Source: Escherichia coli | Lineage (GTDB): Bacteria; Pseudomonadota; Gammaproteobacteria; Enterobacterales; Enterobacteriaceae | NCBI RefSeq assembly: GCF_030013595.1 | Contig: NZ_CP122768.1 | DNA length: 64,000 nucleotides | Direction: 5' to 3' (one strand) | Part shown: piece after piece, positions 1 to 57,243 of the stretch | Position numbering within the stretch: the first letter of the stretch is position 1 | How the letters are laid out: each line of letters opens with the position of its first letter | The notes under the pieces: generated by a model | Told to the model about the DNA's origin: nothing | What the model saw: the letters and a program-made list of their open reading frames with translations, nothing else | The model's database searches: none | Translations under genes and position numbers: made by a program

Positions 1-279
1 TTTAATCACTTCCCGGGGATGGACTTCCGTGCGGTTGATGGTGCCGGTGAAGAGGGTTTCACCGGCAATCAACTGATTCTGGTTGTTCAGATACAGTACC
101 CGGAACTCTTCCCGCTCCAGTCCTGCCATGTTCAGAATCAGCCATTCCCGTGCCGCATGCGTGGAGGTGAAGGCCACACCGGGTTCATGAAGATGGCGGT
201 CCAGGGTTTTCAGGGCCCGCTGAATGAGGCTGCGCTCACCGGGCGTCATCTCTCCGGGCAGAAAGGAAAGCTGTTGCAT
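1..279 (-). CDS. RadC-like JAB-domain protein (YeeS/YfjY/YkfG paralogue family), N-terminal part only; gene runs off the window start
   Basis: Minus-strand ATG at 277-279; in-frame translation MQQLSFLPGEMTPGERSLIQRALKTLDRHLHEPGVAFTSTHAAREWLILNMAGLEREEFRVLYLNNQ...NRTEVHPREVIK reaches position 1 with no stop. Not in ORF track because it is open at the edge. Family assignment from recalled similarity to prophage RadC paralogues. Confidence 0.65.
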   Translation of the reverse strand, partial: MQQLSFLPGEMTPGERSLIQRALKTLDRHLHEPGVAFTSTHAAREWLILNMAGLEREEFRVLYLNNQNQLIAGETLFTGTINRTEVHPREVIK

Positions 280-294
280 TGTGCTTCTCTCCAT

Positions 295-780
295 TCAGTC
301 GATGATGCGCATAATGGCGCTGCATTCCGGATGCTGCAGGGCATAATCCCGCAGCCGGTAATAATGGACCGTCATGGCATAACACTCCGTACGACAGGCA
401 TGATGACTGTACGTCATCAGACAGGCAGCAATGCCGGCGGCTTCCGGGCTCATTTCAGCGCGGTTACCGTTCATGACATTGAACAGTACCCATGTTTCGT
501 CATCATCGTCATCCGGTTCGGGGGCCATAAATGCCCCGCCGTTGTTCAGGGTGTACAGATTCCAGATACCACCGCAGTAGTCTTCACACAGACGGTCCAT
601 CCAGCCGAAGACACGGGGCTCCAGGGTCACCCACTGTGGAATAAGGCCAAAATGTTGCGGCCAGAAGCTGATGCGCTGTTCATCAGGGACGAGAGTAGCA
701 ACCAGCTGAGGTGGGTTATTCCCTGATGCAGCGGTTACGGAAACAGAAGGTGTGGTGGAATTATGCGTAACGGTTGTCAT
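295..780 (-). CDS. Antirestriction protein, ArdB/KlcA-like (YfjX/YafX family)
   Basis: 161-aa ORF; acidic DDDDDE stretch and C-terminal RLRDYALQHPECSAIMRIID typical of this family; conserved position between DUF932 and RadC-like genes as in CP4-type islands. Confidence 0.7.
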   Translation of the reverse strand: MTTVTHNSTTPSVSVTAASGNNPPQLVATLVPDEQRISFWPQHFGLIPQWVTLEPRVFGWMDRLCEDYCGGIWNLYTLNNGGAFMAPEPDDDDDETWVLFNVMNGNRAEMSPEAAGIAACLMTYSHHACRTECYAMTVHYYRLRDYALQHPECSAIMRIID

Positions 781-871
781 GAGATTATTCCTTATAAAAA
801 GTAAATGAATGGAAGAATGTCCGGAGGCAGGGACGGAAGTGAGTCAGGACTGCGCTTTCAGGGAAAAGGCA

Positions 872-1690
872 TCAGCGCATGCTCTCCAGCAGCGTTTCTG
901 CCATCACCCACAATGCGCGATTGAGCTTAATGTCGGTGTCGATGCTGTGAATGGCCCGGGTGTGGATACGTTTTCCTCTGGCACTGCGACCGGAAATTCC
1001 GCCTTTCAGCATATTCTCCTGGATGGTCTGATATGCGCTCCACAGGTCCTTGCCGTAATCCTCCCTGCGTCGTGGTGTCAGAATGTCAGCAGTGGTGACG
1101 GGCTGATGTTCGTCACCATAACGGTAAGTCAGTGCCGCCTGCGCCAGTGCCTGGCGTGCCGGTGGCGGCAGGACCAGCGACTGCATGGCATCACGTTTCT
1201 CCTCAATCCGGTCAAACACGCCCACCACTTCGTAAGCCCCTTCAATAACTTTCTCCACCACGTTTCCCCGGTGCGGAACACGCACTTCCCCCAGAGACTG
1301 ACCACAGACGCAGCCGTTCTGGCAGACGAATCTGAAGTAACCCGGCAGCATCTGGTAGCTGGAGGTACCGTCATGGGAGTTGAGCAGAATAATTTCAGGG
1401 ACATGTTGTCCGGTTATCTCCCCGTCACGCCGCAGACGCAGCATGTGTTTTGTGTATTCCCGGCGACCCGGGTCACGCACACGTGTCTGGCAGGCGAAGA
1501 ATGGCTGAAAGCCTTCCCGCTGCAGACTTTCCAGTACGGTGATGGTGGGAATGTACGCATAGCGTTCACTGCGGGAGGTATGCCGGTCTTCTCCAAAAAT
1601 ACTGGGAACATAGTGCATCAGCTCTTCATGTGTCAGTGGACGTTCACGGCGTATCTGGTTTGTATAACCAAAACGACTGGCTAATCGCAT
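872..1690 (-). CDS. DUF932 family protein (YfjQ/YafZ-like), CP4-type island core gene
   Basis: 272-aa ORF starting MRLASRFGYTNQIRRERPLTHEELMHYVPSIFGED; length and N-terminus match the recalled YfjQ/YafZ paralogues; gene order DUF932 - antirestriction - RadC. Confidence 0.65.
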   Translation of the reverse strand: MRLASRFGYTNQIRRERPLTHEELMHYVPSIFGEDRHTSRSERYAYIPTITVLESLQREGFQPFFACQTRVRDPGRREYTKHMLRLRRDGEITGQHVPEIILLNSHDGTSSYQMLPGYFRFVCQNGCVCGQSLGEVRVPHRGNVVEKVIEGAYEVVGVFDRIEEKRDAMQSLVLPPPARQALAQAALTYRYGDEHQPVTTADILTPRRREDYGKDLWSAYQTIQENMLKGGISGRSARGKRIHTRAIHSIDTDIKLNRALWVMAETLLESMR

Positions 1691-2100
1691 AATTGCTCCT
1701 TATGAATGATTAAGCGGTATAAATGAAAAAACCGCGTCTCCCGGAGAAGACGCGGCCTGATGGGTGAAATGAATGAGGTTTATTGTCCGGGAAGCCCTTC
1801 ACTGGTGAGCCACGCATTAAGTTGTTTGCCTGCATAGGGTTCAGAATTCCGGCAGCGCCAGCGTCGCTGACCTTCCGCGTTGCGGATAATCCGCCGGAAA
1901 TGCATTCCTGGATAAACACATTGCGGTAAGCTGTTATGACAGCAACTGTCTGTTTGCGTGAGAAAGGATCTTCGGAAAATAAAAGTAATGTACAGCCCGT
2001 CATGTATTTTCAGGTAAAAATAAAGCCCCTGCCATTATGGCAGAGGATTTATTTACATTTGATATTAATAACGCGCAGATAAGATACTATAATTCATACA

Positions 2101-2514
2101 TTAAATTTTGATTTCGTCAAGCCCGACAATCTTATGAATCGTATTGTCGTAAAGTTTAACGCCCGGTTTACCGTTTTTTAGGGTAACGAAACCGGCGGTG
2201 ATGTTGCCTTCACAACTTTGATTGTTGTTGTATTTGATGGTCTGGGCTTTACCGGTATAGAAATTAATTACGCCGTATAAACCATCCCAGCACGCTGTAC
2301 CCCCCATGGCGTGTACCAGACCGTATTGCATGTCTTTGGATGTGCCCAGGTATTCACAACCTCCGTCGATAGTATCAGTACCCTGACACCAGAATTCTGT
2401 ACCGTCAGTAACGTCAGTCAGGTTGGTCGGTAAAGGAACGGCATTGTTTGCTGATACATTAGCAGTAAAGAAACTGATAACTGCAATCATTAAAATAGTG
2501 ATGATATTTTTCAT
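2101..2514 (-). CDS. Hypothetical secreted Cys-containing protein (signal peptide)
   Basis: 137-aa ORF with hydrophobic N-terminus MKNIITILMIAVISFFTANVSA; six Cys in mature part; lies in visibly AT-rich DNA. Confidence 0.45.
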   Translation of the reverse strand: MKNIITILMIAVISFFTANVSANNAVPLPTNLTDVTDGTEFWCQGTDTIDGGCEYLGTSKDMQYGLVHAMGGTACWDGLYGVINFYTGKAQTIKYNNNQSCEGNITAGFVTLKNGKPGVKLYDNTIHKIVGLDEIKI

Positions 2515-2783
2515 GATAAATACTCCATTGTTTCTGATGTTAAATAAAAGTATAAAAACTGTTTCTGCAATACTTATAATCCACTCGAGAGGTCAGGATT
2601 AACCCCCGACTTGTTTATTAAACACATACCTGAAGATATGACCTTCAACATGGTGATATATTTATACTATGTTTCTGACTGTCTCCTGAATCAAATAAAA
2701 TATATCCGTTCCATGATGAACATCATTTACCTGTTAAGAACACTAATAACCTGATTATTTAGCAAACTCTGCGAGAAAGAATA

Positions 2784-3323
2784 TCAGATCGTAAATAACA
2801 CCAGTATCAGCATAACCAGCCAGACCCAGAAATAAGCAGGTTTTTGCCCGAGGATCTTTGCCCGACGCCACAGATAAACCGGGATCAGCCATGCCAGCCA
2901 GCCAAATGCTGTGGTATCAACACCAGATTTACGGAGTTTTCGTTCATCCAGATATCCCAGAGCAATATTCAGAATCAGAGAGATAAACCAGTACTGGCCT
3001 TCGCTGACTGCATCATAAGCCCGTTCAAATGACATACCGTTCAGCCCGGCAGTCCACATCTCAAGTATGTACCCAATCAAAGGGGCAAATGCCAGCGTCC
3101 AGACAACGTCTCCGGGAATGCGGTGACCCGGAAGGGCCGGAGGAACTTCACTTTGTTTCAGTATTTCCGCCAGTGATGTGGCTGAAACTGGCTGCCATTC
3201 CAGCATGCCCTGTTGCCACACCAGTGTTGATGCATTCAGTTCACCACGCCGGATACGTTCGATAATATCTTCCTCTGTTACGTTATCATAACGTACACCA
3301 TTTTTTTCATAATGCCAGTTCAT
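2784..3323 (-). CDS. Membrane protein with N-terminal DUF4339 (GYF-like) domain
   Basis: 179-aa ORF; N-terminus MNWHYEKNGVRYDNVTEEDIIERIRRGELNASTLVWQQGMLEWQPV fits the W-Y-x-NG...TLVW..GM..W pattern of DUF4339; C-terminal half has hydrophobic helices. Confidence 0.5.
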   Translation of the reverse strand: MNWHYEKNGVRYDNVTEEDIIERIRRGELNASTLVWQQGMLEWQPVSATSLAEILKQSEVPPALPGHRIPGDVVWTLAFAPLIGYILEMWTAGLNGMSFERAYDAVSEGQYWFISLILNIALGYLDERKLRKSGVDTTAFGWLAWLIPVYLWRRAKILGQKPAYFWVWLVMLILVLFTI

Positions 3324-3447
3324 CTGATTCTCCTGTTAATCATTCAGTTAATAAAACATGTGACATCCAAAACAAAAATATTTTTATGATATTCATTTTC
3401 ACTCACTGTATTAAATTAAACTGAGGTGTTTTACACCACGTTATCAA

Positions 3448-3905: not shown

Positions 3906-4036
3906 GAGATTTCTCCCCAAAATTAAATAAATTAATCTTAACCATCATCCGGGTAATATATATCTGAAAATATTTTCAATAACACCAGATAAGAAAAACA
4001 CCACCACAGTGGCGGTGGCGTTTCTCCGGTGTGTCT

Positions 4037-5107: not shown

Positions 5108-6009
5108 GCCTCTCCCTTCTGAAATATTTCATCAACCATACTTTCAGAGAGGCGTTCTGCAGAGCAGAGACGGGGCATACGAACCGGTAAGTGTTCTGCA
5201 GCCTGCGTGGTTGACCAGATCACAGGATGCCGCTCTTCACTGCACCAGTCCCCCAGCCAGTTAACCGCTTCATGCCATTCGTTATCAGCCTGTTCCCGGC
5301 GCTGACCACCAAGCCAGTCCAGTGTGTTCAGACGTACTGTTGCGCTACCGCCACTCTCCCGTGCCATCTGCGTTAATGCTTTATATCTGAGAATATCCAG
5401 TAACTGATTAACCTGGCCTGTTTCACCCTGACGAATCACATCACCAAACGCGCCCCAGCGAAGCTCTTCAAGCGCCACATAACAACGTCCGGCAGGGGAA
5501 AATGACGCGTATCGCCCGGCGCTCCACCACGAGAATATCTGCTCAAGATGTAACTGTGCCCGCTGAACCTGGTCAACACGGTGGAGTTTTTCCTCAAGAT
5601 GATTCAGTTTCTGATGAACCTGTTCTGCCAGAGTGAGTAACTGCTCCCGCGTGTCAGCCGAATAATGCGCCAGCCTGGCAGTATCACTGACCAGTGAACT
5701 GACCCTGTCGTTTACCCGGGTAATCGCGTAGTTTGTGGTGGCAAGTGACGTTGTCAGCTCCGTCAGCCAGCGCAGGGACGCCTCAACGCCCTGTGCAAGC
5801 GACGCATTGATGGCATTCTGCCGTGCAGCGCCTTCGCCGGTCAGCCCCTCTTTTAAACGCCGGAAGAACGTGCGCTCTCCGGCCGTGCGGATATGCTCCT
5901 GTGCAACATCGATTCCGTTTGCGAAATCAACCACAAATTTTTCAGGAAGACAGGTGAGTACCTGACATACCCGGTTATCAGCAATTTGTTGAATAAATGG
6001 TGAAGTCAC
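5104..6009 (-). CDS. Coiled-coil hypothetical protein (YjcZ-like partner of dynamin-like GTPase)
   Basis: 301-aa ORF with GTG start overlapping the dynamin stop (GTGA) and its own stop overlapping the patatin start; no catalytic motif recognised; YjcZ comparison is by size and position only. Confidence 0.55.
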   Translation of the reverse strand: MTSPFIQQIADNRVCQVLTCLPEKFVVDFANGIDVAQEHIRTAGERTFFRRLKEGLTGEGAARQNAINASLAQGVEASLRWLTELTTSLATTNYAITRVNDRVSSLVSDTARLAHYSADTREQLLTLAEQVHQKLNHLEEKLHRVDQVQRAQLHLEQIFSWWSAGRYASFSPAGRCYVALEELRWGAFGDVIRQGETGQVNQLLDILRYKALTQMARESGGSATVRLNTLDWLGGQRREQADNEWHEAVNWLGDWCSEERHPVIWSTTQAAEHLPVRMPRLCSAERLSESMVDEIFQKGEA

Positions 6010-8393
6010 AGCATTGTCTCCAGCTCTTCCCTCAGCGCCTTACTGTCAGTAATGAGCTCAGGAACCCTTTCATTTAATGCCTGAAGTCGCCCGGTAAGCC
6101 GTTCCTGCGCCTGCTGATCGCGTTTATGATCTTCAGAGCTCTGAATCAGCGTGTTACGCAGTTGTTCAACTTTCTCCCTGAATGCGCAGAAAAAGGCATC
6201 GATTTCCTGGCGGACGGGCTGGTTAATATCCTGCTCAATGGATGCCTGCAGCTCCCCGAAATATGCCCGGGTCAGTGACATAACTTCCTCTCTGGCCTTG
6301 TTGATATTGATCACGCTGCGACTCACATCCTCGTCATAGTTTTCCCAGCCCAGGTCACTGGTGCCAAACCATCGACAAACGGTTCCCCATACGCCACTCT
6401 GCCGACGGCGACGGGTGACGGTCTCCGTTCTTTCCTCCATAAGCGCACTCAGATTTATTTTTACCGCGAGCCGGGTCTGTAACTGGCTGACTGCCGGAAA
6501 ACTGATTTTTACGGTAAAGCCCTCATCCTCCAGGCGGGCATTGATGCGACCGGCAATGTTTTCTGTGGCGTACAGGGCCGTGCCACGAAAACCTGTTTCA
6601 ATCCCGCTGACGATTTTCTCCAGCTCAGGCCGGAACTGTGCTTCAGCCTCACGGTGCAGGCTGGTCACGGTCGATTCGATTTGCGTCATCAGTTCAAGGG
6701 CTGCCCTGCGATCACTGAATTTTATTTCGGGGCTGTCCGGATCAAAGTCCCGCATCCTGTCATGCTGATTTCCGGTTCCGAAAATATCGTGAAAGAAAGC
6801 GAATGCGTTTCTCTCCCGGGGCTGCGCTGAATTTTCTTCCTCCAGCATTTGCTGTTCTTTGCGTTTACCGCTTCTGAAATAGTCGTTCAGCTCCTCCTCC
6901 AGTGAGGCACAGACCTTCGTCAGTAATTCCCCGGTTTTGGTATTGATGTCCTCCATGGCCATTCTGACATCACCGGTCACCTGATTCTGACATTCCTCAA
7001 TCTCCTGGATATCCGCCAGCAGGCTGGTAATATGCGCCTGTAGTGACTGAATGCTTTGCTGCAGCCCCTGATGACGTAATGACAGATATTCGCTGACATT
7101 TTCTGCATTCTGCATCAGTTTTGCGGCGGCAGAGTCAACCGCCAGTGCCGCCGCTCTGGAATGGGAGCTCTGTATGACTTCCGTTATCAGTTGATCGATC
7201 AGAGATATATTCCAGAGTTTTTCTGCCTTTTTATTTACCTTAGTGCTGTCTTTCCAGTCGTCCTCTTCCACCATAGGTCCGAAAGCTTCCCTGATAAAAT
7301 CATCGACCCAGGCTTCATCAACCGGAAGCGCACCGTTTTTTCGTAACTCATGAAGCGCACGGTTAGCCAGGTACGCCTGACGTGATGAGCCGGGATAAAC
7401 GCGGGAGGCGGGCAGCACATCGCTGTTCAGCATTGCTGGCACCTTCTGGCGTACGGCATCCGCACCATCACCATTGCGATCTTTTTCATCGAATTTATTG
7501 ACCAGCACAAACAGACGACCGGCTGAGACGTCAGCAATGGCATTAAGCTCTTTACGAACCTCCTCATCGGCTTTCGAGTTCATCTGGGTGTAATCCATCA
7601 CCGCCAGCACCGCAGAGGCTTTCTGTAGTTGATCCCGCATCATCATTTCCATCTGTGGTTGTCCGGCTTCATTAGGGCCGGGGGTATCCAGCAGTGTGAG
7701 TGTTCCCTGACATGCATCCATTCCCACCAGGTGGCTGAACGCCACGTCGATCACCGGTAGTTTCTGCACTTCTGCGTATTCGTCAAAAGGAAATTCAGTC
7801 CCCATTGCCGCAGCAAGACGAACCAGGTCATTTAACGATGCCAGTCCGGTAAAGATTTCGTCTTCCCCGTGGTATTCATTTTTAAGCCAGACATCATCCG
7901 CCAGAATATCCAGTAGTTCGCGGGTATCCCCGGTTTGCTGCAGGGACTGTGCGACTTGCTGCCCTGCCGGGGTGGCGAGTTTTTCCTGCAGTGTGATTAA
8001 TAAATTGCGGACGGGCTGAATATGTTCCAGATGGAGGACCGGTTCCGTTTTTCCGGGAACGTGGCGGATCAATGTCGGTACCGAGGTCATGGGGCGGTTA
8101 CGGTTGGGCAGAATTTCCTGCCCCACAATGGCGTTGATGGTGGTTGATTTGCCCGCCTTCATCGTGCCGACCACAGCCAGCACCATCTCCCTGCGGGCGG
8201 TTTTGATTTGTTCGCCCTCCAGCTCCTCAATTCTTTTCAGCGCTTTCCGTTTATCAAAAAGCAGCCCGTTTTCGTTCTTACTGTCAGATAACACATCCGG
8301 CTCATCAACCATTTGCCGGAGCAGATTGATATTCAGTTGCAAAAGCCGGTCGGCTTCATCACAAAGCAGGGCGATGTTCTTTTCGTGCATCAT
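6006..8393 (-). CDS. Dynamin-like GTPase (CrfC/YjdA-like bacterial dynamin)
   Basis: 795-aa ORF; G1 P-loop VVGTMKAGKSTTINAIVG, G3 LLDTPGPNE, G4 VNKFD; long helical C-terminal region; N-terminal block closely resembles my recollection of E. coli YjdA. Confidence 0.75.
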   Translation of the reverse strand: MMHEKNIALLCDEADRLLQLNINLLRQMVDEPDVLSDSKNENGLLFDKRKALKRIEELEGEQIKTARREMVLAVVGTMKAGKSTTINAIVGQEILPNRNRPMTSVPTLIRHVPGKTEPVLHLEHIQPVRNLLITLQEKLATPAGQQVAQSLQQTGDTRELLDILADDVWLKNEYHGEDEIFTGLASLNDLVRLAAAMGTEFPFDEYAEVQKLPVIDVAFSHLVGMDACQGTLTLLDTPGPNEAGQPQMEMMMRDQLQKASAVLAVMDYTQMNSKADEEVRKELNAIADVSAGRLFVLVNKFDEKDRNGDGADAVRQKVPAMLNSDVLPASRVYPGSSRQAYLANRALHELRKNGALPVDEAWVDDFIREAFGPMVEEDDWKDSTKVNKKAEKLWNISLIDQLITEVIQSSHSRAAALAVDSAAAKLMQNAENVSEYLSLRHQGLQQSIQSLQAHITSLLADIQEIEECQNQVTGDVRMAMEDINTKTGELLTKVCASLEEELNDYFRSGKRKEQQMLEEENSAQPRERNAFAFFHDIFGTGNQHDRMRDFDPDSPEIKFSDRRAALELMTQIESTVTSLHREAEAQFRPELEKIVSGIETGFRGTALYATENIAGRINARLEDEGFTVKISFPAVSQLQTRLAVKINLSALMEERTETVTRRRRQSGVWGTVCRWFGTSDLGWENYDEDVSRSVININKAREEVMSLTRAYFGELQASIEQDINQPVRQEIDAFFCAFREKVEQLRNTLIQSSEDHKRDQQAQERLTGRLQALNERVPELITDSKALREELETML

Positions 8394-8500
8394 TCACCTT
8401 TATAAATTCAATAATTCAGAACTGCGGTGAACAGCAATGAGCGTCCTTTCCCATTACTGCATGAATTTTCCTGAAATCGTATTTCCGGGATACCGTATAA

Positions 8501-43657: not shown

Positions 43658-44238
43658 TAGCGAATAACCGCTGAAACGATATCGGAGTGCATATCGTCAA
43701 TTGTGCGGCCGCGACAGGCATGGCCAAGGGCGGTAAAGTCCCAGTTGCCGTTATTACGGCGCAGCGAAGAAATAACGATCCCGGTATGTGAGCCCTGCTC
43801 AGTCAGCTTGTAGCGAGCCAGCTCTTTGCCGGTTTGATCGACAACGCGGCAGAAAGCGTTTTCGACGTCATTGAACGACTGACCACGGAAGCTGTTTACC
43901 GTAAACGCCAGGTATTCAACGTTTGCAGGCAGGCGGGAGAGGTTGACCTTAATCACTTCATCGTCACCGTCACCCTCACCGGTCAGGTTATCGCCACTGT
44001 GCACAACAGCGCCGCAGGTGGATTTCAGTTTGCGGAACCAGATGGTGTCAATTGTTTTACCTGTGCTGTCCATTAATACACAGCCAGCATCGAGATCGAT
44101 TGAGTCGTTGCCTCCAAACAATCCTCCAAGAAGACCTTTTTTCTTAACCGGATCCCAACCGAGACCGAAATGAAGCTGGCTTAATGCAGATGATTCTTTG
44201 CTGAGTGATACCGTCTGGTTCTTAACTAATGAAACCAT
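43657..44238 (-). CDS. terZ: Tellurium resistance protein TerZ (TerD domain)
   Basis: 193 aa MVSLVKNQTVSLSKESSALSQLHFGLGWDP...; first gene of the operon, divergent from the biosynthetic cluster. Confidence 0.8.
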   Translation of the reverse strand: MVSLVKNQTVSLSKESSALSQLHFGLGWDPVKKKGLLGGLFGGNDSIDLDAGCVLMDSTGKTIDTIWFRKLKSTCGAVVHSGDNLTGEGDGDDEVIKVNLSRLPANVEYLAFTVNSFRGQSFNDVENAFCRVVDQTGKELARYKLTEQGSHTGIVISSLRRNNGNWDFTALGHACRGRTIDDMHSDIVSAVIR

Positions 44239-44560
44239 GTTTTATTCCTTAAAATGGTAATGACCGAGACAATCAAAGGTATATTTAGTAACTGACGAAG
44301 AAAATCATATCATGATGAAGTTCTCTGACAAGGGAAATTTTTGTGGTTTTCTGTAAAAACACAAAAAGAAATCCTTTTCAGGGTGTTAGTTTTTCTATTT
44401 TTAATTTAAATATCAATGTGTTATAAGGAATCCAAAAAACACTGACGCACTCCATAACCACAGGAGTTATTAATCATATTATGATTGACATGTAGCTTAG
44501 ACACTCATAGACTCACTTCTCAATCATAAATTTGCATGGCGTTCCGGATAATTAAAAAAA

Positions 44561-45619
44561 ATGAACAAGAAAATTTGGTTTATGGAAGGTTTATCCTCCC
44601 AGCGAGATATTATTCAGGGGGTAAAATCATTTGCACAAAAAAATAATTTTGCCATTACCGTTTTTGCCTCCCACCGTAACGAAAGAAATGAAATCCTTTC
44701 CGTTGCCGATTATTCTTTGACTGAACCTGAAGATCCTCAAAAACGTCTTCAGTTTATCCAGGAAACCATTCAGACCTACGGCATCCACCATATTCATACT
44801 GGCCGTAACAGCCAGTGGTTTGAAGAACACCGTTCAGCCATTGAACCGACCGGTGCCACCCTTACTACCGGTGCAACGGGCGTCGACTGGTTAACTCTGG
44901 CTGACGAAAAAGTTACTTTTGCTCAGTTTATGGAGCAAAAGGGTCTCCCGGTCGTACCATCCTGGCGGGTGAATACGCTGGCAGAATTAAAGACACACCT
45001 CGCGGCCCCGCCGTTCACTGACAGCCCGGTATGCGTGAAGCCGGTGACGGGTATCTATGGCATGGGATTCTGGCGCTTTGATGACAGTGCTTCGCCTATG
45101 GCCGTCTTTAATCATCCCGAACATCGTCTGGTCAGTCCGCAACAGTATATTGCAGCAGCATCAGCTGCTGAGTCGTTTAAACCCCTTGTTTTGATGCCGT
45201 ACCTGCCAGGCCCGGAATTTTCCGTCGATATCCTCGCGGATAAGGGCGAAATACTCGCAGCCGTGGGACGCCGTAAGGAAGGGGCTATCCAGTATCTGGT
45301 AAACGAAGGAAGCGCCTGGGAACTGGCGTGTGACTGCGCCCGTGTTATGAAGGCCGACGGGCTGGTGAATGTTCAGACGCGAAACGATGTGAATGGCAAC
45401 CCGGTGCTGCTTGAAACCAACATGCGTCCGTCAGGGGGGGTGGGTTATACCCTTCACAGCGGTGTGAACCTTCCTGGGTTATTTGCTGCCTTTAAGCTCG
45501 GTCTGATGTCTGAAGATATGGTACGCCAGAGCGCTAAAAACACCTTTTCTCCGGTTGCGGTGAGATCCATTACGGATGTAATTGCATACCCGGAATCACT
45601 CTCTAACCTTCTGAATTAA
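44561..45619 (+). CDS. ATP-grasp family enzyme (ter-linked biosynthetic cluster)
   Basis: 352 aa; first gene of a tightly packed plus-strand cluster divergent from terZ; ATP-grasp call is from overall pattern and the ter-linked context described by comparative genomics. Confidence 0.55.
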   Translation: MNKKIWFMEGLSSQRDIIQGVKSFAQKNNFAITVFASHRNERNEILSVADYSLTEPEDPQKRLQFIQETIQTYGIHHIHTGRNSQWFEEHRSAIEPTGATLTTGATGVDWLTLADEKVTFAQFMEQKGLPVVPSWRVNTLAELKTHLAAPPFTDSPVCVKPVTGIYGMGFWRFDDSASPMAVFNHPEHRLVSPQQYIAAASAAESFKPLVLMPYLPGPEFSVDILADKGEILAAVGRRKEGAIQYLVNEGSAWELACDCARVMKADGLVNVQTRNDVNGNPVLLETNMRPSGGVGYTLHSGVNLPGLFAAFKLGLMSEDMVRQSAKNTFSPVAVRSITDVIAYPESLSNLLN

Positions 45620-47538: not shown

Positions 47539-48618
47539 ATGCAGCCACATGAAACATTTACCGGCTCATACCAGCCCGGTGACGTGGAATTTCTGCTAAA
47601 GCCGGTTGTCATTGAGATGACGCCGGTTGAGAAAAAAGAAGAACTGATTCAGTCCGGGAAGAAACATTATTCGGACATGCTCAGCCAGGAGCCAGCGCCT
47701 ACACAATGGCATCTTGATTTGTTTCACCGGGCGCTGGATCGGGGCGCAGAGAGGCTTGCAAAAGAAGTCACACAGCTCGCTATTGCTCTGGCCGAACGCT
47801 TCGGTGATGAGCCCATTGTACTGGCCAGTCTTGTCAGGGCTGGCGTTCCGCTCGGCGTTATGCTGCACCAGGCCCTGCGTGACATGGGGAAAACCTCATG
47901 GCATTACGGTATCAGCATTATCCGGGATCGTGGAATTGACGGTGCAGCCCTCGACGTCATTGAAGAGCGGCATGGTACCAGCGGTATTGTCTTTGTTGAC
48001 GGATGGACAGGTAAAGGCGCAATTACCGGAGAGCTTGTACGCGCACTGAAAGATCGCCCGGGCTATCCTGAGCAGCCGCGACTGGTTGTCCTGGCCGATC
48101 CCTGTGGCTGCTCCTGGCTTGCAGCCAGTGATGATGACTGGCTCATTCCTTTTGGCATCATGGGGGCGCCGGTATCAGGCCTGATCTCCCGGTCAGTATG
48201 GTCCTCTGAAGGATTACACGGGTGCATGGTTTGCGAGCATCTCAGTGAATTCGAATGCAGCCGGATGCTTGCCGATACCGTCGCTCATTTCCGTAAGAAG
48301 TTAACACCGTCATCCCTCGCTCCCCTGAGCTGGAATACGGAATCAGCCCGGGTCTTATGGCAGACAAGTCGCGACGTTATCGCGTTCCTGGCCGATGAAT
48401 TTAAAGTGGACAGCGTCAATCGTATTAAACCCGGTATTGCTGAAGCAACCCGGGCTGTATTACGTCGGGTACCGGACCATGTATTTGTGCGTTCTATTGA
48501 CGACCCGGACGTTGCCTTGCTTGTAGGGCTTGCTCGTGAAAAGGGAATAGTTGTTACAGAAATGGGGGGAACCCTCGGCCAGTATCGGGCTGTAACCATT
48601 ATCAAGAAGGTACTCTGA
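47539..48618 (+). CDS. Second PRTase-like protein (ter-linked cluster)
   Basis: Start MQPHETFTG preceded by GGAGA; PRTase-like motif IVFVDGWTGKG; stop overlaps next start. Confidence 0.5.
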   Translation: MQPHETFTGSYQPGDVEFLLKPVVIEMTPVEKKEELIQSGKKHYSDMLSQEPAPTQWHLDLFHRALDRGAERLAKEVTQLAIALAERFGDEPIVLASLVRAGVPLGVMLHQALRDMGKTSWHYGISIIRDRGIDGAALDVIEERHGTSGIVFVDGWTGKGAITGELVRALKDRPGYPEQPRLVVLADPCGCSWLAASDDDWLIPFGIMGAPVSGLISRSVWSSEGLHGCMVCEHLSEFECSRMLADTVAHFRKKLTPSSLAPLSWNTESARVLWQTSRDVIAFLADEFKVDSVNRIKPGIAEATRAVLRRVPDHVFVRSIDDPDVALLVGLAREKGIVVTEMGGTLGQYRAVTIIKKVL

Positions 48619-49574
48619 TGAAAAATCGTCTTTCTCCCTGGAATCTGGGAGCCACGCTATACATGCCTGCAACACGGGAAGATATTGCTGATGCCGTCCT
48701 GCACGGGAAAATCCCGGGCTTGCGCTCTCTGGTGATTTGCCTGGAGGATGCTGTCAGTGAAGCAGACATCCCCGTCGCCCTCAAAAATCTGGAGCACCTG
48801 CTGCACGAGCTCAGTAACAGCATGAGTAGCCTGGGTAAAAATGACTGGCCTCTGGTGTTCATTCGCCCCCGGCATGCCGAAATGGGCAGATGGTTAAAAG
48901 CGCATTATGATCTTTCCGCTGTCGACGGGTTTGTGCTGCCTAAATTTACCCTCAGTTCGTTAGCTGAATGGTGGGATATCATGGTCGGGACTCACCTGTG
49001 CATGATGCCAACGCTGGAAACAGAAGATGTCTTTGACGTGGTTCAGATGCGCGAGCTGGCTACCCGTCTGGAGGAACATCCCTGCCACGACCGCATTATT
49101 GCGCTTCGAATCGGCGGCAACGATCTTATGAACGTTGTGTCGCTTCGCCGTCCCCGGGACCTGACGCTGTATGACAGCCCGATGGGCTACGTCATCAAAA
49201 TGCTCGTTTCGGTCTTCGGCCCGCGTGATTTTGCCCTGACCGCGCCTGTATGTGAGCATATTGACGATCATGCCGTTATGGCCAGAGAGCTGGCTCTTGA
49301 TATGGCACACGGGCTTGTTGGGAAAACGGCCATTCACCCGGGTCAGATAGAGGTCATTCAAAACGCGCTGATGGTCACTCAGGGTGAGCATTCTGACGCT
49401 CTGCGGATCCTGAACTCTACCCAGGCCGTGTTTAAGTCGCAGGGAGCAATGTGTGAACCCGCCACACATCGCCGCTGGGCGGCTGGCATTCTGGACAGGG
49501 CTCGTTTTTATGGGTTACAGAACGAGCAAAGCGCTGATGGAATCAGATTACTTACCGTGACCCAGCATCATTAA
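48618..49574 (+). CDS. HpcH/HpaI aldolase / citrate-lyase beta-subunit-like protein (ter-linked cluster)
   Basis: 318 aa; TIM-barrel lyase-like pattern; translationally coupled to upstream gene. Confidence 0.55.
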   Translation: MKNRLSPWNLGATLYMPATREDIADAVLHGKIPGLRSLVICLEDAVSEADIPVALKNLEHLLHELSNSMSSLGKNDWPLVFIRPRHAEMGRWLKAHYDLSAVDGFVLPKFTLSSLAEWWDIMVGTHLCMMPTLETEDVFDVVQMRELATRLEEHPCHDRIIALRIGGNDLMNVVSLRRPRDLTLYDSPMGYVIKMLVSVFGPRDFALTAPVCEHIDDHAVMARELALDMAHGLVGKTAIHPGQIEVIQNALMVTQGEHSDALRILNSTQAVFKSQGAMCEPATHRRWAAGILDRARFYGLQNEQSADGIRLLTVTQHH

Positions 49575-49584
49575 GGAAATCATA

Positions 49585-50793
49585 ATGGGGTTCAGGTTCA
49601 GAAAGTCGATCAACATTATTCCTGGCGTTCGCCTCAACCTGAGTAACGGTGCACCGAGCCTGAGTGTCGGGCCGAGAGGTGCTTCCGTTTCTTTTGGTAG
49701 CCGGGGGACCTATGCCAATCTGGGCTTGCCCGGTACCGGGCTGAGTTACCGTACCCGGCTTGACCGGGCCGCGCGTTCCAGAGGTGAAAACCGGACGGCA
49801 ACCGACCCGGGGCTCAGACAGGCGCTTGAGCAGAAAGCCGCTGAACTCATGTCAGCGGTAACCGCAATCCGTAATATTCACGAGCTGACGCCGGATCCAA
49901 AAACAGGCATCAGCTGGGCAGAGCTGGAAGCAGTATACCTGCATAACAGAACGTCGCCTTTTCAGGTTCCGGCACCGGTGCGTCCAGAAAAGCCAGACTA
50001 CCTTGTATTGCCGGAAAAGCCTGCCGAGAGCGAAGGCATTAGTTTTTTGGGTAAATGGTTTGAATCGGAATCAGCTAAAGCTGAGCGCCACGCCGAAAAT
50101 CTTCGCCGGTGGCAGCAGGAGCTGATTGATGTGGAGCGTGAGAATACCCTTCGACAGCACCGGTACCAGCAACAACGGACGGCCTGGGCCGAACAGTATG
50201 CAAACTGGAAGTTTGAAGCTGAAGAACATGAAAAACGGCTCGCCACGGCTCAGGCAGATGCCCGGCAGCAGTTCCGGACAGACGCCGCGTTTTTCGAATC
50301 ATACCTGGCGGGTGTGCTGGCAGAAACTGAATGGCCGCGTGAAACGCTTGTTGCATTTGAAGTAAAGCCGGAGCTATCAGCAGTCCTGCTGGACGTTGAT
50401 TTAGCTGAGATTGAAGATTTCCCTGATAAGATTTACGGCGTTAATGCCCGGGGAACGGAGCTGACGGAAAAAGCCATGACGCAAAAAGCCGTACGCGAAA
50501 ACTATGCCCACCACGTCCATGGCTGCTTGTTCCGCCTGGTCGGTATCGTTTTACATACGCTACCTTTCGACAACGTGATTGTGTCAGGCTTTACGCAACG
50601 GGTCAGTAAGCGGACCGGCTATCTGGAGGATGAGTATATCCTGTCCTGCAAATGCACTCGCAGCCAGATGTCGTCAGTAAATTTTGCAGGCATAAAACAC
50701 ATTGATCCGGTTGAAGCGTTAGGCGATCAACCGGTTATTCGAAAGATGAGCAGTACCTTCATTTTTCAGCCTATTGAACCACTAACCCTTTAA
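49585..50793 (+). CDS. DUF4236-domain protein
   Basis: 402 aa; N-terminus MGFRFRKSINIIPGVRLNLSNGAPSLSVGPRGASVSFGSRG is the DUF4236 signature. Confidence 0.6.
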   Translation: MGFRFRKSINIIPGVRLNLSNGAPSLSVGPRGASVSFGSRGTYANLGLPGTGLSYRTRLDRAARSRGENRTATDPGLRQALEQKAAELMSAVTAIRNIHELTPDPKTGISWAELEAVYLHNRTSPFQVPAPVRPEKPDYLVLPEKPAESEGISFLGKWFESESAKAERHAENLRRWQQELIDVERENTLRQHRYQQQRTAWAEQYANWKFEAEEHEKRLATAQADARQQFRTDAAFFESYLAGVLAETEWPRETLVAFEVKPELSAVLLDVDLAEIEDFPDKIYGVNARGTELTEKAMTQKAVRENYAHHVHGCLFRLVGIVLHTLPFDNVIVSGFTQRVSKRTGYLEDEYILSCKCTRSQMSSVNFAGIKHIDPVEALGDQPVIRKMSSTFIFQPIEPLTL

Positions 50794-50810
50794 GCAGGCT
50801 AAATCTTACG

Positions 50811-51278
50811 ATGCAATTAAATACCAGACAGGCCCGGATTTTTAAGCTTGCCAACTTACTGGGCACCGGCAAGCCCGTTTCCGCTGCCGACATTATAACC
50901 AGTCTGGAATGCTCTGAGCCGACATTAACCCGGGCCCTCAAAGAGCTACGCGAGTCATATTCTGCGGAGATCAAATACAGCAAGGCAGGTCATTCCTATC
51001 ATCTCGTTAATCCGGGCCAGTTGGATAAAAAGACCCTCCGCCGGATGAATGAAGCGCTCGCACAGAATGCTGAACTGAAAACCGGTGAGTCCACAGGGAA
51101 GGTCGTACTCGATAAGGATAAAAAAACAGCCGTGTCATTATCGCTACGCATGCGGATTCTAAGAAAAATTGACCGTCTGGCTGCGCTGAGTGACTCGACC
51201 CGAAGTGAAGCGGTAGAGAAGCTGGCTCTGCACTCCGTTGATGAACTGATAAAAGAATACAGCGCTAAAAAGTCCTGA
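50811..51278 (+). CDS. terW: TerW-like winged-helix regulator
   Basis: 155 aa, HTH-like N-terminus; size and position at the end of the ter-linked cluster fit recalled TerW. Confidence 0.45.
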   Translation: MQLNTRQARIFKLANLLGTGKPVSAADIITSLECSEPTLTRALKELRESYSAEIKYSKAGHSYHLVNPGQLDKKTLRRMNEALAQNAELKTGESTGKVVLDKDKKTAVSLSLRMRILRKIDRLAALSDSTRSEAVEKLALHSVDELIKEYSAKKS

Positions 51279-51360
51279 CGCTAAATCTCAGACCGGGGTG
51301 AAAACTCCGGTTTTGTCATATTTCACCTCTGTATTGGCGTGATGCAAAATGGCATCTGAA

Positions 51361-51447
51361 TCGATCATGGTTTGGCATCCATTTCCGATCACAGTTTGGC
51401 ATCACAATCGATCACGATTTGGCATGCTTCCGCTCATTGATTGGCAT
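51361..51447 (+). repeat. Array of four ~20-bp direct repeats with core TTTGGCAT (iteron-like)
   Basis: TCGATCATGGTTTGGCATCC / CCGATCACAGTTTGGCATCA / TCGATCACGATTTGGCATGC / CTCATTGATTGGCATCC, unevenly spaced (~12 to ~34 bp between cores), between terW-like stop and the IS66 orf1. Confidence 0.6.
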
Positions 51448-51538
51448 CCTGGTGTCGTTACGGGGAAGTCATCTTCACAGGGATCTTCAGTCAGTTAGCA
51501 TTACCGACATCCATTCACCAACTTACCGGAGATAATCA

Positions 51539-51868
51539 ATGTCAAAACCCCGATGGACGCTTGATCAGAAAAAACATCACGTTGCCGCATGGCGCGCCAG
51601 CGGCCTTACCCGTGAACAGTACTGTGAACTTTACGACATTCCGTTTAAATCCCTGCGCCAGTGGCCGCAGGATGTCGCAAAAGCCGAAAAACGAGCCAGA
51701 GCACCAGAAATTATTCCTGTTTCAGTATCTGGCTCTTCCGGAATGACTGATGGCAGACCATTGTCGGATGAGCCTGTCACTCTCTTCCTGCCCGGTGGTA
51801 TCCGGATGTGCTGCCAGCCTTCTCAGTTAACCGATGTTTTCCGGGCTCTTCGCCATGCTGACGCCTGA
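51539..51868 (+). CDS. IS66-family accessory protein orf1 (outer copy)
   Basis: 109 aa MSKPRWTLDQKKHHVAAWRASGLTREQYCELYDIPFKSLRQW (HTH). Confidence 0.65.
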   Translation: MSKPRWTLDQKKHHVAAWRASGLTREQYCELYDIPFKSLRQWPQDVAKAEKRARAPEIIPVSVSGSSGMTDGRPLSDEPVTLFLPGGIRMCCQPSQLTDVFRALRHADA

Positions 51869-52235
51869 TAACGTATTCCTGGTCGTAAAACCCGTCGATA
51901 TGCGCCGGGGTATCGACACACTGACACAGTACGTCCAGAACGAACTTAACGCTGCATGGCATGACGGTGCTGCTTTTGTCTTCACCAATAAAGTCCGCTC
52001 CCGCATAAAAGTTCTCCGGTGGGACAAACATGGCGTATGGCTGTGTACCCGACGACTGCACCGGGGAAGCTTCCGCTGGCCCCGGAAAGGTGATGCCACA
52101 TGGCATCTCACACAGGATGAGTTTCACTGGCTGGTCTTTGGGGTTGACTGGCAACAGGTGAAAGGGCATGACCTGGCAAAATGGGTATACCAGGAAGAAC
52201 CCGAAGATGCTCAGAGCAACGCAATAACTCAATGA
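51834..52235 (+). CDS. IS66-family TnpB-like orf2 (outer copy)
   Basis: ...LVVKPVDMRRGIDTL...VLRWDKHGVWLCTRRLHRGSFRWP parallels other IS66 orf2 copies. Confidence 0.65.
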   Translation: MFSGLFAMLTPDNVFLVVKPVDMRRGIDTLTQYVQNELNAAWHDGAAFVFTNKVRSRIKVLRWDKHGVWLCTRRLHRGSFRWPRKGDATWHLTQDEFHWLVFGVDWQQVKGHDLAKWVYQEEPEDAQSNAITQ

Positions 52236-52277: not shown

Positions 52278-53108
52278 ATGGATATCTCGCTTCTCAGTAC
52301 CACCAGTGACCCTGAACAGCTTCGCGCTCTGGCAATTGCCATGGTGCAAAAAGTCATGGCTGAGAATGCAGAACTTCAGAACCGTATCCGCATCCTGGAA
52401 GAGCAGATGAAGCTCGCACGCCAGCAGCGTTTCGGTAAAAAATGCGAATCGCTGGCCGGGATGCAGCGTTCCCTGTTCGAAGAGGATGTTGACGCGGATA
52501 TCGCAGAAATCTCGGCGCATCTGGACAAACTGCTTCCTCAGACCGGGGACGAAGAAAAAACAACAACACGTCCTGTTCGTAAGCCCTTGCCTTCACCTCT
52601 TCCCCGTGCTGAAAAGGTTATCCCGCCAGCTGAGGAACGTTGTCCTGACTGTGATGCCCCCCTGCACTTCATTCGCGATGAAGTCAGCGAGAAGCTGGAA
52701 TATATTCCGGCACAGGTCGTGGTCAACCGCTATATCCGCCCGCAGTACAGCTGTCCCTGCTGTGAGAAAGTGTTCAGCGGAAAAATGCCGGCACATATCC
52801 TTCCGAAAAGTGCTGTTGAGCCATCGGTCATCGCACAGGTTGTCATCAGCAAATATACCGACCATCTGCCCCTGTATCGCCAGCAGCACATTTTCTCCCG
52901 AATGGGGGTGGAGCTCCCCGTCAGTACAATGGCGGATATGGTCGGTGTTGCTGGCGCTGCACTGGCCCCGCTGGCAAAATTGTTACGCCACGAGCTTCTG
53001 ACACGGGATGTTATTCATGCAGATGAAACGTCCCTGAGGCTCCTTGATACCCGGAAAGGCGGTAAATCCTGCTCCGGCTGGCTGTGGGCTTACGTCAGCG
53101 GAGAAAGA
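52278..53108 (+). pseudogene. IS66-family transposase TnpC, N-terminal part (interrupted by nested IS66)
   Basis: Cys-rich region CPDCDA...CPCCEK; reading frame runs into the nested element's terminal repeat at 53109. Confidence 0.7.
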
Positions 53109-53138
53109 GTAAGCGTCAACGGAGCACCGTATTGACGC

Positions 53139-54752
53139 TTATTTATTGGTGAGTACTACGTTCCATGGCAGGAGTTCATCAACTCGGTTGGAAGGCCATT
53201 CTGGCAGTACGCTCAGGATATGGCGCAGATACGCTTCCGGATCGATACCGTTCAGACGGCAGGTGCCGATCAGCCCGTACAACAGTGCTCCACGCTCGCC
53301 GCCGTGATCGCTGCCAAAGAACATAAAGTTTTTCTTTCCGAGACAGACTGCACGAAGCGCTCTTTCCGCAGCATTATTATCCGCCTCCGCCAGACCGTCA
53401 TCACTGTAATAACAGAGGGCATCCCACTGATTCAGTACATAGCTGCACGCTTCGCCCAGTCTGGATTTTTTCGACAGCGTACCATTCTTCTCCACCATCC
53501 ATTCATGCAGTGACGTCAGTAACACTTTGCTTCGCTGCTGCCTGACGGCAAGACGCTCTGACTCCGGTAATCCCCGTATTTCATCCTCGATGGCGTACAG
53601 TTCACTGATTCGCTTCAGGGCTTCTTCTGCCGTCGCACTTTTGCTGCTGATGTATACATCGTGGATTTTTCGCCGGGCATGGGCCCAGCACGCAACTTCT
53701 GTCAGTGCACCACCTTCACGTTCTGCACTGAACAGCCGATCGTAACCGCTGAACGCATCCGCCTGCAGGATACCCCGGAAGGGACGAAGGTGTTGTACCG
53801 GATGTTTTCCCTGCCTGTCTGGTGAGTAGGCGAACCAGACCGCCGGTGGCTCTGATGAGCCCGCATTCCGGTCATCCCGGACATACGTCCAGATGCGTCC
53901 TGTTTTTGCCTTTTTTCTGCCCGGTGCCAGCACTTTTACTGGTGTGTCGTCAGTGTGAACCTTGCGGGTGTTCATCACGTAACGGTACAGGGTATCATTC
54001 AGCAGAGTCATTAACTGACAACATGCGTCAACCCAGTTGGAGAGTAATGCCCGGCTCAGTTCGATGCCCTGGCGGGCAAAGATTTCACTCTGACGATACA
54101 GTGGCAGGTGTTCGCAGTATTTTCCCGTTAACACGCGGGCAAGTAATCCGGAGCCCGCGATGCCGCGCTCTATCGGGCGGGACGGCGCTGGCGCTTCAAC
54201 TATACAGTCACATTTTGTACAGGCTTTTTTTACCCGAACAGTGCGGATCACTTTCAGGGCGCTACTCACCAGTTCCAGCTGCTCAGCACTGACTTCCCCC
54301 AGATAATCCAGCTCACTGCCACACTCCGGGCAACAACTTTCTTCAGGCTCCAGACGGTGTATTTCACGGGGAAGATGTGCCGGTAACGGACGACGATGAC
54401 GTGACTGTCGCAACTGGCGGGGAACCTGCGGGTCATCCTCACGCCCACTGTAACGATCGCTTTCCTGTTCGCGTTGTTTCAGTTGGGCCTCAGCCTGTTC
54501 AACCTCACGCTGCAGTTTTTCAGAACGGGTACCGAACAACATCCGGCGCAGTTTTTCTATCTGGGCCCTCAGATGTTCTATTTCCCGCTCCTCCTCTTCG
54601 ATCTTTTCCTCGGCACGTGCCAGTGCAGAGCGCAGGAAGGCCTCCGTCTCTTCAACCAGACTCAGTTGCTGATCTTTCTGACGGAGGGCTTCAGCCTGCT
54701 CAGAGAGCAGCCTTTCCAGCTCAGTGATACGAATGAGGTATTTCCGACTCAT
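53139..54752 (-). CDS. IS66-family transposase TnpC (nested copy)
   Basis: 537 aa; CPECGSEL...CTKCDC zinc-finger-like region; DDE region. Confidence 0.85.
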   Translation of the reverse strand: MSRKYLIRITELERLLSEQAEALRQKDQQLSLVEETEAFLRSALARAEEKIEEEEREIEHLRAQIEKLRRMLFGTRSEKLQREVEQAEAQLKQREQESDRYSGREDDPQVPRQLRQSRHRRPLPAHLPREIHRLEPEESCCPECGSELDYLGEVSAEQLELVSSALKVIRTVRVKKACTKCDCIVEAPAPSRPIERGIAGSGLLARVLTGKYCEHLPLYRQSEIFARQGIELSRALLSNWVDACCQLMTLLNDTLYRYVMNTRKVHTDDTPVKVLAPGRKKAKTGRIWTYVRDDRNAGSSEPPAVWFAYSPDRQGKHPVQHLRPFRGILQADAFSGYDRLFSAEREGGALTEVACWAHARRKIHDVYISSKSATAEEALKRISELYAIEDEIRGLPESERLAVRQQRSKVLLTSLHEWMVEKNGTLSKKSRLGEACSYVLNQWDALCYYSDDGLAEADNNAAERALRAVCLGKKNFMFFGSDHGGERGALLYGLIGTCRLNGIDPEAYLRHILSVLPEWPSNRVDELLPWNVVLTNK

Positions 54753-54782: not shown

Positions 54783-55133
54783 TTACAACATTGTCAGTGC
54801 ATTAAGGCGGGATGTTTTGGGCTGACGCCAGTCCAGTTTATCGAGGAGCATTGCCAGCTGCGAGCGGGTAATGGATACCTTACCGTCACGCACCGCAGGC
54901 CAGATAAACTGGCCTTCCTCCAGACGTTTGGTGAACAGGCACAGACCATCAGCATCAGCCCACAGAATTTTAATCGTGTCACCCCGTCGGCCGCGAAAGA
55001 TAAACAGGTGACCGGAGAAGGGGTTCTCATCCAGCACATGTTGTACCTGTTCTCCCAGACCGTTGAAGGATTTACGCATATCAGTAACGCCGGCAACCAG
55101 CCAGATTCGAGTGCCTGATGGGAGCGAGATCAT
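54783..55133 (-). CDS. IS66-family TnpB-like orf2 (nested copy)
   Basis: 116 aa MISLPSGTRIWLVAGVTDMRKSFNGL... Confidence 0.8.
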   Translation of the reverse strand: MISLPSGTRIWLVAGVTDMRKSFNGLGEQVQHVLDENPFSGHLFIFRGRRGDTIKILWADADGLCLFTKRLEEGQFIWPAVRDGKVSITRSQLAMLLDKLDWRQPKTSRLNALTML

Positions 55134-55555
55134 CGTCCCCTCCCGGTCAGTTCACGGATCAACACCGTGAGCAGCTCTGGTGAAGGATTTTCCAGCGTCA
55201 TGTTACCGTGGCGGAACTCAACTTTACAGGAACTGGCACTGACTGTGCTTTGTGAAGGAGTGGATAAAAGCGGAGTAAGAGCCGCCATAGGCTCTTTCTG
55301 CTCATCAGGCGTTATCTCAACAGGTAATAATTCAACGCCAGCGCCAGAAGAGGTTGTTACCGGAAGACGCCGCGATATACGCCTTTCGTTCTGCCAGAGC
55401 CTGAGCCATTTGAACAGGAGGTTATCATTGATATCGTGTTCCCGGGCAATACGGGCAACAGAGGCTCCTGGTTGTGAAGCCAGTTTAACCATTTGAAGTT
55501 TAAACTCATTTGAAAATGATCTGCGGGGTTCTGAGGATAATATTTTCTGTTCCAT
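55130..55555 (-). CDS. IS66-family accessory protein orf1 (nested copy)
   Basis: 141 aa, near-identical to 15953-16378. Confidence 0.8.
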   Translation of the reverse strand: MEQKILSSEPRRSFSNEFKLQMVKLASQPGASVARIAREHDINDNLLFKWLRLWQNERRISRRLPVTTSSGAGVELLPVEITPDEQKEPMAALTPLLSTPSQSTVSASSCKVEFRHGNMTLENPSPELLTVLIRELTGRGR

Positions 55556-55649
55556 AACAGGTGTCCACTAGTTGAAAAGGTGGGCACCTACGTTACCAAT
55601 ACTGGCTTAATGGCTACATACGGCGGTCAGTTTACGCTTACGAGAAAGA

Positions 55650-56360
55650 AGCGGTCCGCCGGTCGTCTGTTTTGACTCGCAGACCGGACGGGCCCTCAGA
55701 TATCCTGAGGCCTGGCTGCAGGGCTGGTGTGGCGGTACGCTGGTGAGTGACGGATACAGCGTGTACAAATCTCTGGCGGATAATGACCCCGGTATTACAT
55801 CTGCCTGTTGCTGGAGCCACGCAAGGCGCGGTTTCGCAAATCTGTATAAGGCCAGCAGGGAGCCCCGTGCAGCCATGGCGCTGAGAAAAATCGCGGGTCT
55901 TTATCGCATTGAGAAGTTCATCCGTGAACGTCCTGTGGAAAAAATACGGCAATGGCGACAACGGTATTCCCGGCCGATAGTGAATGACCTGTTTGCCTGG
56001 CCTGAAGAGCAGGAGCCGTGCTGTCCGCCCGACGGACCACTAAACAAAGCGATTAATTATATCCTGAACCGGCGCGATGAACTGAGCTGCTTCCTGAGTG
56101 ACGGAGCCGTGCCCCTGGACAACAATATCTGCGAGCGTGCTATCCGCCCGGTGGTCATGGGGCGGAAAGCATGGTTATTCGCCGGTTCACTGATGGCCGG
56201 GAACCGCGCGGCACAGATAATGAGCCTTCTGGAAACGGCAAAACGTAATGGTCTGGAGCCGCATGCCTGGCTGACAGACGTTCTGACGCGTCTACCGGAG
56301 TGGCCGGAAGACCGACTGGAAGAGTTGCTGCCCCTTGAGGGATTTACCTTCTCCGGATGA
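55650..56360 (+). pseudogene. IS66-family transposase TnpC, C-terminal part (outer copy, resumes after nested IS)
   Basis: ...CWSHARRGFANLYKA...LPEWPEDRLEELLPL is the conserved TnpC C-terminus; track ORF 55743-56360. Confidence 0.7.
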
Positions 56361-56570
56361 GTGATACCTGCCATCAGGTGTTCGTGCAGCGGGCCATAAC
56401 CCGCAGTCGGGAGTTGAACGCCTGACGACAGGAAATGAGCCAGAGCAGCGACCACGCGGGCTGACAGTGAGTCAGAACCTGAATCAGCCCGGAGCCATTC
56501 CCGGGGCTGTACTTCATCACCTGCCATCAGTACCCGTGTCAGTACTTCGCGACCTGACGCAATTACCCGA

Positions 56571-56870
56571 CTCAGTTCTTCAGAACCCGCCTCCGATACC
56601 AGCCTGGCGGTCGCCCCTGTGCAACAAAATAAATCAACCATCGTCAGACGGTGATCAATCGTATGCGCTGCCAGTGGCTCGCCTGAAAAATGCGTCAATA
56701 TGAGTTCGCCGGAACAATACCTCAGTTCTTCAGAACCCGCCTCCGATACCAGCCTGGCGGTCGCCCCGGCGCAACAGAATAAATCAACCATCGTCAGACT
56801 GCGATCATTCGTATGCATCGCTGATGATGCGCCCGAAAAACGCGTCAATATGAGTTCGCCGGAATATTAC
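56571..56870 (+). repeat. Tandem direct duplication, 2 x ~150 bp, ~85-90% identical by eye
   Basis: Unit begins CTCAGTTCTTCAGAACCCGCCTCCGATACCAGCCTGGCGGTCGCCCC... at 56571 and again at 56721. Confidence 0.8.
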
Positions 56871-57243
56871 TGACGACACGGTTTGTAGTTACGTTCCTTC
56901 GGTGAGTGAGTACCTGTGCGTCAGGGTAACGCAATCAGTTCAGGTTTAGCGGGGTGTCAAGTCGGTTTGGCTAACCGACCGCAGAATTAACTGTACCTTT
57001 AAAGGTCGCCCCCGATATATCTGCCTGTCAGACATATCGCCGATTCGGTATCTCACTACATAAAACTCCTTAAAAAACAATGCGATTCTGTTGGTACGAA
57101 GCTTTCAGTAAGTCAGTCCGGAGAAGCGCCAGTACGATACAGAATGAGGTTGAAAAAAACGTTCACGTCTGGTCACTTCTTCAAATGTTAAAAAACATCT
57201 CGTAAAGAGCCAGTTTATGCGGGTTCGTTGAGTAGACGTGCGA

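Follow-up and report, generated by a model that had tools for sequence, protein, structure and literature searches.

Truncated left end of an IS21-family insertion sequence between terW and an IS66-family element in an Escherichia coli tellurite-resistance island

The interval between terW and the IS66-family element

The window, that is, the whole stretch of 64,000 nucleotides (64 kb) of Escherichia coli DNA that was analysed, contains a gene named TerW in RefSeq (50811–51278), an array of short direct repeats (51343–51451) and the left end of an IS66-family element (from 51451), all on the plus strand. The gene order in the RefSeq annotation of one EHEC record (L005) runs from terZ-side genes through terW to IS66-family tnpA and tnpB and an interrupted tnpC, with nothing annotated between terW and tnpA.

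The gene terW and its 3′ flank (50811–51342, plus strand) include the last part of the window that is colinear with IncHI2 ter plasmids. Positions 1–3343 of a 6.3-kb IncHI2 plasmid locus (L003) aligned with 48000–51342 of the window at 98.3 % identity, and both blastn and direct alignment showed the match to stop exactly at 51342. IncHI2-type ter plasmids from Salmonella, Enterobacter, Klebsiella and E. coli matched the stretch 51000–51342 at ~98 % identity, and 22 of 30 evenly sampled plasmid rows from a search with 51000–51900 had a match restricted to terW that ended at query position 343. Past this breakpoint the plasmid locus continues with unrelated sequence (continuation CGGAGTTTTGATC) and then with VWA/TerD-family genes downstream of terW. 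These downstream IncHI2 ter genes (the terY/terX group) were absent from the 64-kb window by blastn and tblastn, as were VWA terY genes; searches with the IncHI2 genes returned only TerD-family paralogues (36–39 % identity) from the terZABCDE-side region. Just past the terW stop, within the stretch conserved with IncHI2 plasmids, is a terminator-like hairpin (51290–51313; AGACCGGGGTGAAAACTCCGGTTT and then a T-rich tail).

The array spans 51343–51451 and reads, in order, TGCAAAATGGCATC TGAAT CGATCATGGTTTGGCAT CCATTTC CGATCACAGTTTGGCAT CACAAT CGATCACGATTTGGCAT GCTTC CGCTCATTGATTGGCAT CCTG, which extends the feature beyond the 51361–51447 given in a preliminary description of this DNA. Its units are built from two parts, CGATCA and TTGGCAT, in the motif CGATCA-N3-(T/A)TTGGCAT, also written CGATCA-N3-TTTGGCAT. 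A motif scan of the 64-kb window located three exact copies and one copy with two mismatches, all inside the array and on the plus strand. The exact copies are units 2 (CGATCATGGTTTGGCAT, 51362–51378, core at 51371), 3 (CGATCACAGTTTGGCAT, 51386–51402, core at 51395) and 4 (CGATCACGATTTGGCAT, 51409–51425, core at 51418). Unit 5 (CGCTCATTGATTGGCAT, 51431–51447, core at 51440) is the degenerate copy, and the half-site flanking its core reads CGCTCA instead of CGATCA. These four are the units sharing the CGATCA-N3 motif that had been reported previously, but a fifth unit had been overlooked. This is the terminal, L1-equivalent unit TGCAAAATGGCATC (51343–51356, plus strand), the core of which (AATGGCAT, 51348–51355) lies 23 bp upstream of the first core in the earlier account.

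The five cores (51348, 51371, 51395, 51418 and 51440) are separated by 23, 24, 23 and 22 bp, and a repeat finder grouped four 21-nt copies with start-to-start distances of 24, 23 and 22 bp. The spacing is thus regular and not uneven (~12 to ~34 bp) as had been described. Shuffled sequence would be expected to give 0.04 matches to the motif at one mismatch or fewer; the window has three, all within the array, a count that was not reached in any of 100 shuffles. This excess shows that the array is real and not a product of chance. No inverted partner array was found by the motif scan in the 64-kb window, and the motif had no match, even at three mismatches, in the 6.3-kb terW locus of the IncHI2 plasmid. 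An ORF of 49 aa that reads across the array (51349–51498, plus strand) found no support as a gene.

To the right of the array, the left end of the IS66-family element (GGTGTCGTTACGGGGAAGTC..., 51451–51538, plus strand) was placed from three independent copies of this IS66 type (L006, L007 and L008; 80–88 % identical) and from the PGAP annotation of L005. Common sequence among the independent copies exists only from GGT(G/A)TCGTTACGGGG on (also given as GGT(G/A)TCGTTACGGGGAAGTC), with unrelated flanks before this point; in the window, the element starts GGTGTCGTTACGGGG at 51451/51452. The outer element, from 51451 to ~56360, is itself split, with tnpA at 51539–51868, tnpB at 51855–52235 (mapped from the PGAP annotation, L005 9856–10236) and tnpC in two parts at 52278–53135 and 55623–56360. 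An IS682-family IS66 element lies in the opposite orientation inside the outer tnpC (tnpC 53139–54752, tnpB 54783–55133, tnpA 55130–55555). No clear boundary for the right end or the target duplication of the outer element emerged from a search for inverted repeats, from 8-mer searches and short blast searches, or from a search for homology breakpoints in 56100–57100.

Identity with the left end of an IS21-family element

The full span of the array matched the left end of an insertion sequence on plasmid p214_4_132 (NZ_CP025841.1; L004) at 105 of 109 positions (96 %), with four substitutions and no gaps. Over 102 bp (window 51350–51451) there was 95 % identity to the left end of an insertion sequence found on the IncI-gamma/K1 plasmid pCMY-2 (NZ_CP047012.1; L001, IS at 5971–8609) and on an E. 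coli chromosome (L002). The terminal unit of the array is the same as the first 14 bases of the IS in all three loci. In L004, the five-core layout seen in the window is followed by istA, while in L001 and L002 istA (IS21 family transposase), accompanied by istB (ISSso4 family helper ATPase), begins ~100 bp downstream of the array match. IstA of intact copies is represented, for example, by L001 6203–7738 and by WP_023181050.1. The L001 proteins pass the NCBIfam IS21 equivalog thresholds, IstA scoring 285.8 against a cut-off of 160 bits and IstB 257.8 against 200 bits.

The L001 and L002 loci share exactly 2639 bp (L001 5971–8609), which is the IS. Both copies begin TGCAAAATGGCATC (TGCAAAA...) and end ...ACGCA, and each of the two insertions examined has a 6-bp target duplication on its flanks (L001, CTTGTA; L002, GTATCC). 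The L001 copy adjoins pilN, and the L002 copy splits a gene for a TPR protein. Six cores are present at the left end in L001 and L002, through one extra 24-bp unit, whereas L004 and the remnant in the window have five. In the intact copies, as aligned from L001 and L004, CGATCATTGATTGGCAT stands at the position of the degenerate unit 5. The right end of the L001 element has the inverted units TGCGTATTCCGCTC, CGATCACGGATTGGCAT and CGATCAGCGATTCGCAT, comprising two clear cores and a terminal unit. It was also observed that the left ends at L001/L002 5971–6125 and L004 3501–3640 differ by one whole 24-bp unit and that the right end has only about three units.

The stretch 51343–51451 almost certainly derives from an IS21-family insertion sequence of the ISSso4 family, as its truncated left terminal repeat region (L-TIR), a set of predicted transposase docking repeats cut by the IS66-family element. 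The name ISSso4 rests on the PGAP label for IstB. The array is highly identical to the end of an element encoding IstA and IstB; its multiple direct repeats are spaced by ~23 bp, include the terminus and recur in related, inverted form at the opposite end of the IS; and the left-hand TG of the terminal 5′-TG...CA-3′ falls at 51343–51344, exactly at the end of IncHI2 colinearity. This identity, the boundaries of the array and its association with istAB elsewhere can be read directly from the alignments. Neither istA nor istB nor the right end is present in the window, where blastn of the whole reference IS matched only 51350–51451, so the array is a remnant of an IS21-family member and not a complete IS. 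Such a remnant is already known in kind and in sequence, as the truncated end of a catalogued IS21-family element with a textbook architecture. One of the earlier proposals, that the repeats are the terminal region of an insertion sequence, holds in general, but the element belongs to the IS21 family.

Both boundaries of the remnant are sharp. On the left, the insertion is separated from the upstream terW stop codon by 64 bp and from the hairpin by 29 bp; the target duplication expected at this site is GCGTGA, and the right end of the element is missing there. On the right, the intact IS21-type element and the window agree as far as GGCATCCTG, after which the former continues CCAGTCACTCC and the latter GTGTCGTTACGG. 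This divergence places the start of the IS66 element at 51451 or 51452, as one G fits either element, and shows that it cuts the IS21 end after 109 bp. The 8 bp directly left of the IS66 end are GGCATCCT or GCATCCTG, depending on how the G at 51451 is assigned. The remnant pins the exact breakpoint of the ter cluster at 51342/51343, where the island departs from the IncHI2 layout and is without terY/terX.

Predicted transposase binding and alternative explanations

Each TIR of an IS21-family element is built from several direct repeats, as a rule two or more (L1/L2 and R1/R2), and IstA requires two complete repeats for integration (PMC10122671). The repeats are 23 bp apart, a spacing that favours supercoiled wrapping around an IstA tetramer (PMC10122671), and IstA engages R1 and R2 through the HTH domains of its lower and upper subunits (PMC11208146). 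The L001 IstA is homologous, at remote identity, to the IstA of IS5376, which has been solved with transposon ends as a cleaved-donor complex (8b4h, E = 3e-14). As the 22–24-bp spacing and the two-part unit fit this picture of an IS21-family TIR, the units are predicted to be IstA binding sites, and the protein that binds them would be IstA and not TerW. The preliminary description had proposed a multimeric protein-binding site, which stands in general terms, with IstA as the predicted binder by homology to IS21-family ends. In an intact element, each of the ~23-bp-spaced units would dock the DNA-binding domains of the IstA transposase; IstA may then multimerise on the repeats of both ends, pair the ends and cut at the terminal TG/CA, while IstB would help to bring in target DNA.

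Compared with known systems, the L-TIRs of the ISSso4-family copies in L001 and L004 have the same TGCAAAATGGCATC terminus and the same CGATCA-N3-TTTGGCAT units at 22–24-bp spacing as the window, but the window end stops after 109 bp at the IS66 element and has no istA, istB or right end. With the L1/L2 and R1/R2 repeats of IS5376/IS21 (8b4h; PMC10122671, PMC11208146) the array shares multiple direct repeats, a spacing of ~23 bp, the terminal CA/TG and the transposase family. However, the repeat sequence differs, five to six left-end repeats are found here and two in the structural work, and binding to the repeats described here is predicted. The ends of Mu (MuA sites) and Tn7 (TnsB sites), with which IS21-family ends are compared in PMC10122671, likewise carry several transposase-binding repeats in unequal numbers on the left and right, but these elements have other transposase families and other site sequences, and the likeness is one of mechanism only and not of membership.

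A left end with this architecture might still be active if IstA and IstB were supplied in trans from an intact ISSso4-type copy, with transposition in an aberrant form (one-ended or composite) or a rearranged ter island as the outcome. The remnant has lost neither the terminal TG nor any of its five cores and differs by only four substitutions in 109 bp, two identical ends can be used by IstA in vitro (PMC10122671), and an intact copy is present on a plasmid in at least one O157:H7 strain. Such activity is nevertheless very unlikely, since the window has no inverted partner array, the remnant is the single match in the sampled O157 chromosomes and the near-invariance of the arrangement across >570 genomes argues against ongoing activity. 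It is just as improbable that the five-site end, bound by IstA in trans, acts as a hotspot of rearrangement or recombination or, at the edge of the tellurite-resistance island, as a boundary occupied by protein, and that the number of units tunes transposition frequency; if true, the difference in unit number (five or six left, about three right) would bear on the role of extra repeats in IS21, Tn7 and Mu-type ends. Most likely, this solitary end, which has no transposase gene or partner end in the window, is an inert scar at the point where the ter cluster breaks off.

The array lies 64 bp downstream of terW, and the adjacent winged-helix protein had been proposed as a candidate to bind it; on this reading it is an operator at which multiple copies of TerW would regulate the ter genes. 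TerW has a weak HTH-type signature, below curated cut-offs, and the intergenic region between terZ and the ATP-grasp gene (44238–44561), where the motif was to be sought, contains a single match with three mismatches (44521–44537, CAATCATAAATTTGCAT). This match is at the background frequency, however, as nine matches were found in the window at three mismatches against 9.27 expected by chance. The IncHI2 terW loci are 98 % identical to the window only up to 51342, then diverge and lack the array, whereas the array occurs at hundreds of sites without terW, always adjoining istA. The TerW literature examined states nothing about DNA targets of the protein. Regulation through TerW is thus an extremely unlikely function for repeats that are missing beside other copies of terW and present where there is no terW.

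Plasmid replication iterons are Rep-binding direct repeats of iteron-type plasmids, and the array resembles them in its ~20-bp direct repeats at roughly two-helical-turn spacing. Plasmid-derived fragments (Hok/Gef and TraT) are also found further along the island, and an iteron remnant from plasmid replication or partition had been suggested, which a Rep or ParB-type protein would bind. This has a negligible probability, because the array adjoins neither a rep or par gene nor an origin: its neighbours are terW and the IS66 tnpA here and istA elsewhere. The same array ends an istAB element at unrelated sites with target duplications and accompanies istA/istB as their left end in 349 E. coli records, and the same units are inverted at the other end of this mobile element, which is a mark of transposon ends and not of an origin.

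There is equally little to recommend the array as the outer, previously undefined terminal region of the adjacent IS66-family element, which it abuts and with which it is found in >570 E. coli genomes: the three independent IS66 copies start at GGT(G/A)TCGTTACGGGG with unrelated, motif-free upstream flanks and contain no copy of the array motif, the array occurs without any IS66 in L001, L002 and L004, and the joint presence of the two at ≥99 % identity in 577 records suggests one inherited island.

Distribution and history of the remnant

The region 51000–51900 was 100 % identical in E. coli O157:H7 and other EHEC chromosomes, and at least 80 % of it was held by 582 records (580 complete E. 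coli genomes). The 577 records with both the array and the IS66 element are EHEC genomes. This near-identity across >570 genomes suggests the inheritance of one island and not selection on the array. The Hok/Gef and TraT fragments mentioned above were seen further on in the island of L005. Both the left end and the 5′ part of istA were present in 349 records (264 complete E. coli genomes), and 51350–51451 gave ~95 % matches to short stretches in many unrelated plasmids and chromosomes.

The present arrangement probably arose by the insertion of an ISSso4-type element 64 bp downstream of terW, just past the hairpin, into which an IS66-family element would later have landed 109 bp from the left end. 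The istA/istB body, the right end and terY/terX, which follow terW on IncHI2 plasmids, would then have been lost. The order of these events (insertion, arrival of the IS66 element and deletion) and the fate of the IS21 body are inferred, because the right boundary and the target duplication of the IS66 element are unlocated. Among complete E. coli genomes, no record covered at least 80 % of a chimeric query for the ancestral state, an intact IS beside terW, composed of the terW flank, the array and the 5′ part of istA.

The 109-bp remnant explains an iteron-like array in a widely studied EHEC island and matters little beyond annotation. It also gives reason to check for the ends of insertion sequences before regularly spaced direct repeats beside a regulator gene are called an operator.

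Other fragments of the element were observed. Several sampled E. coli chromosomes contain unannotated pieces of the same IS (positions ~90–300 of the left end and istA leader, 94–97 % identity). A match to the initial 35 bp of this IS21-type terminus occurs at positions 4001–4035 of a locus from the chromosome of E. coli STEC379 (L009). It is flanked by a truncated reverse-transcriptase gene of a group II intron on one side and by an IS3-family element on the other, within a group of IS fragments beside a fragment of the EAST1 toxin gene, and is another truncated copy of the same IS terminus.
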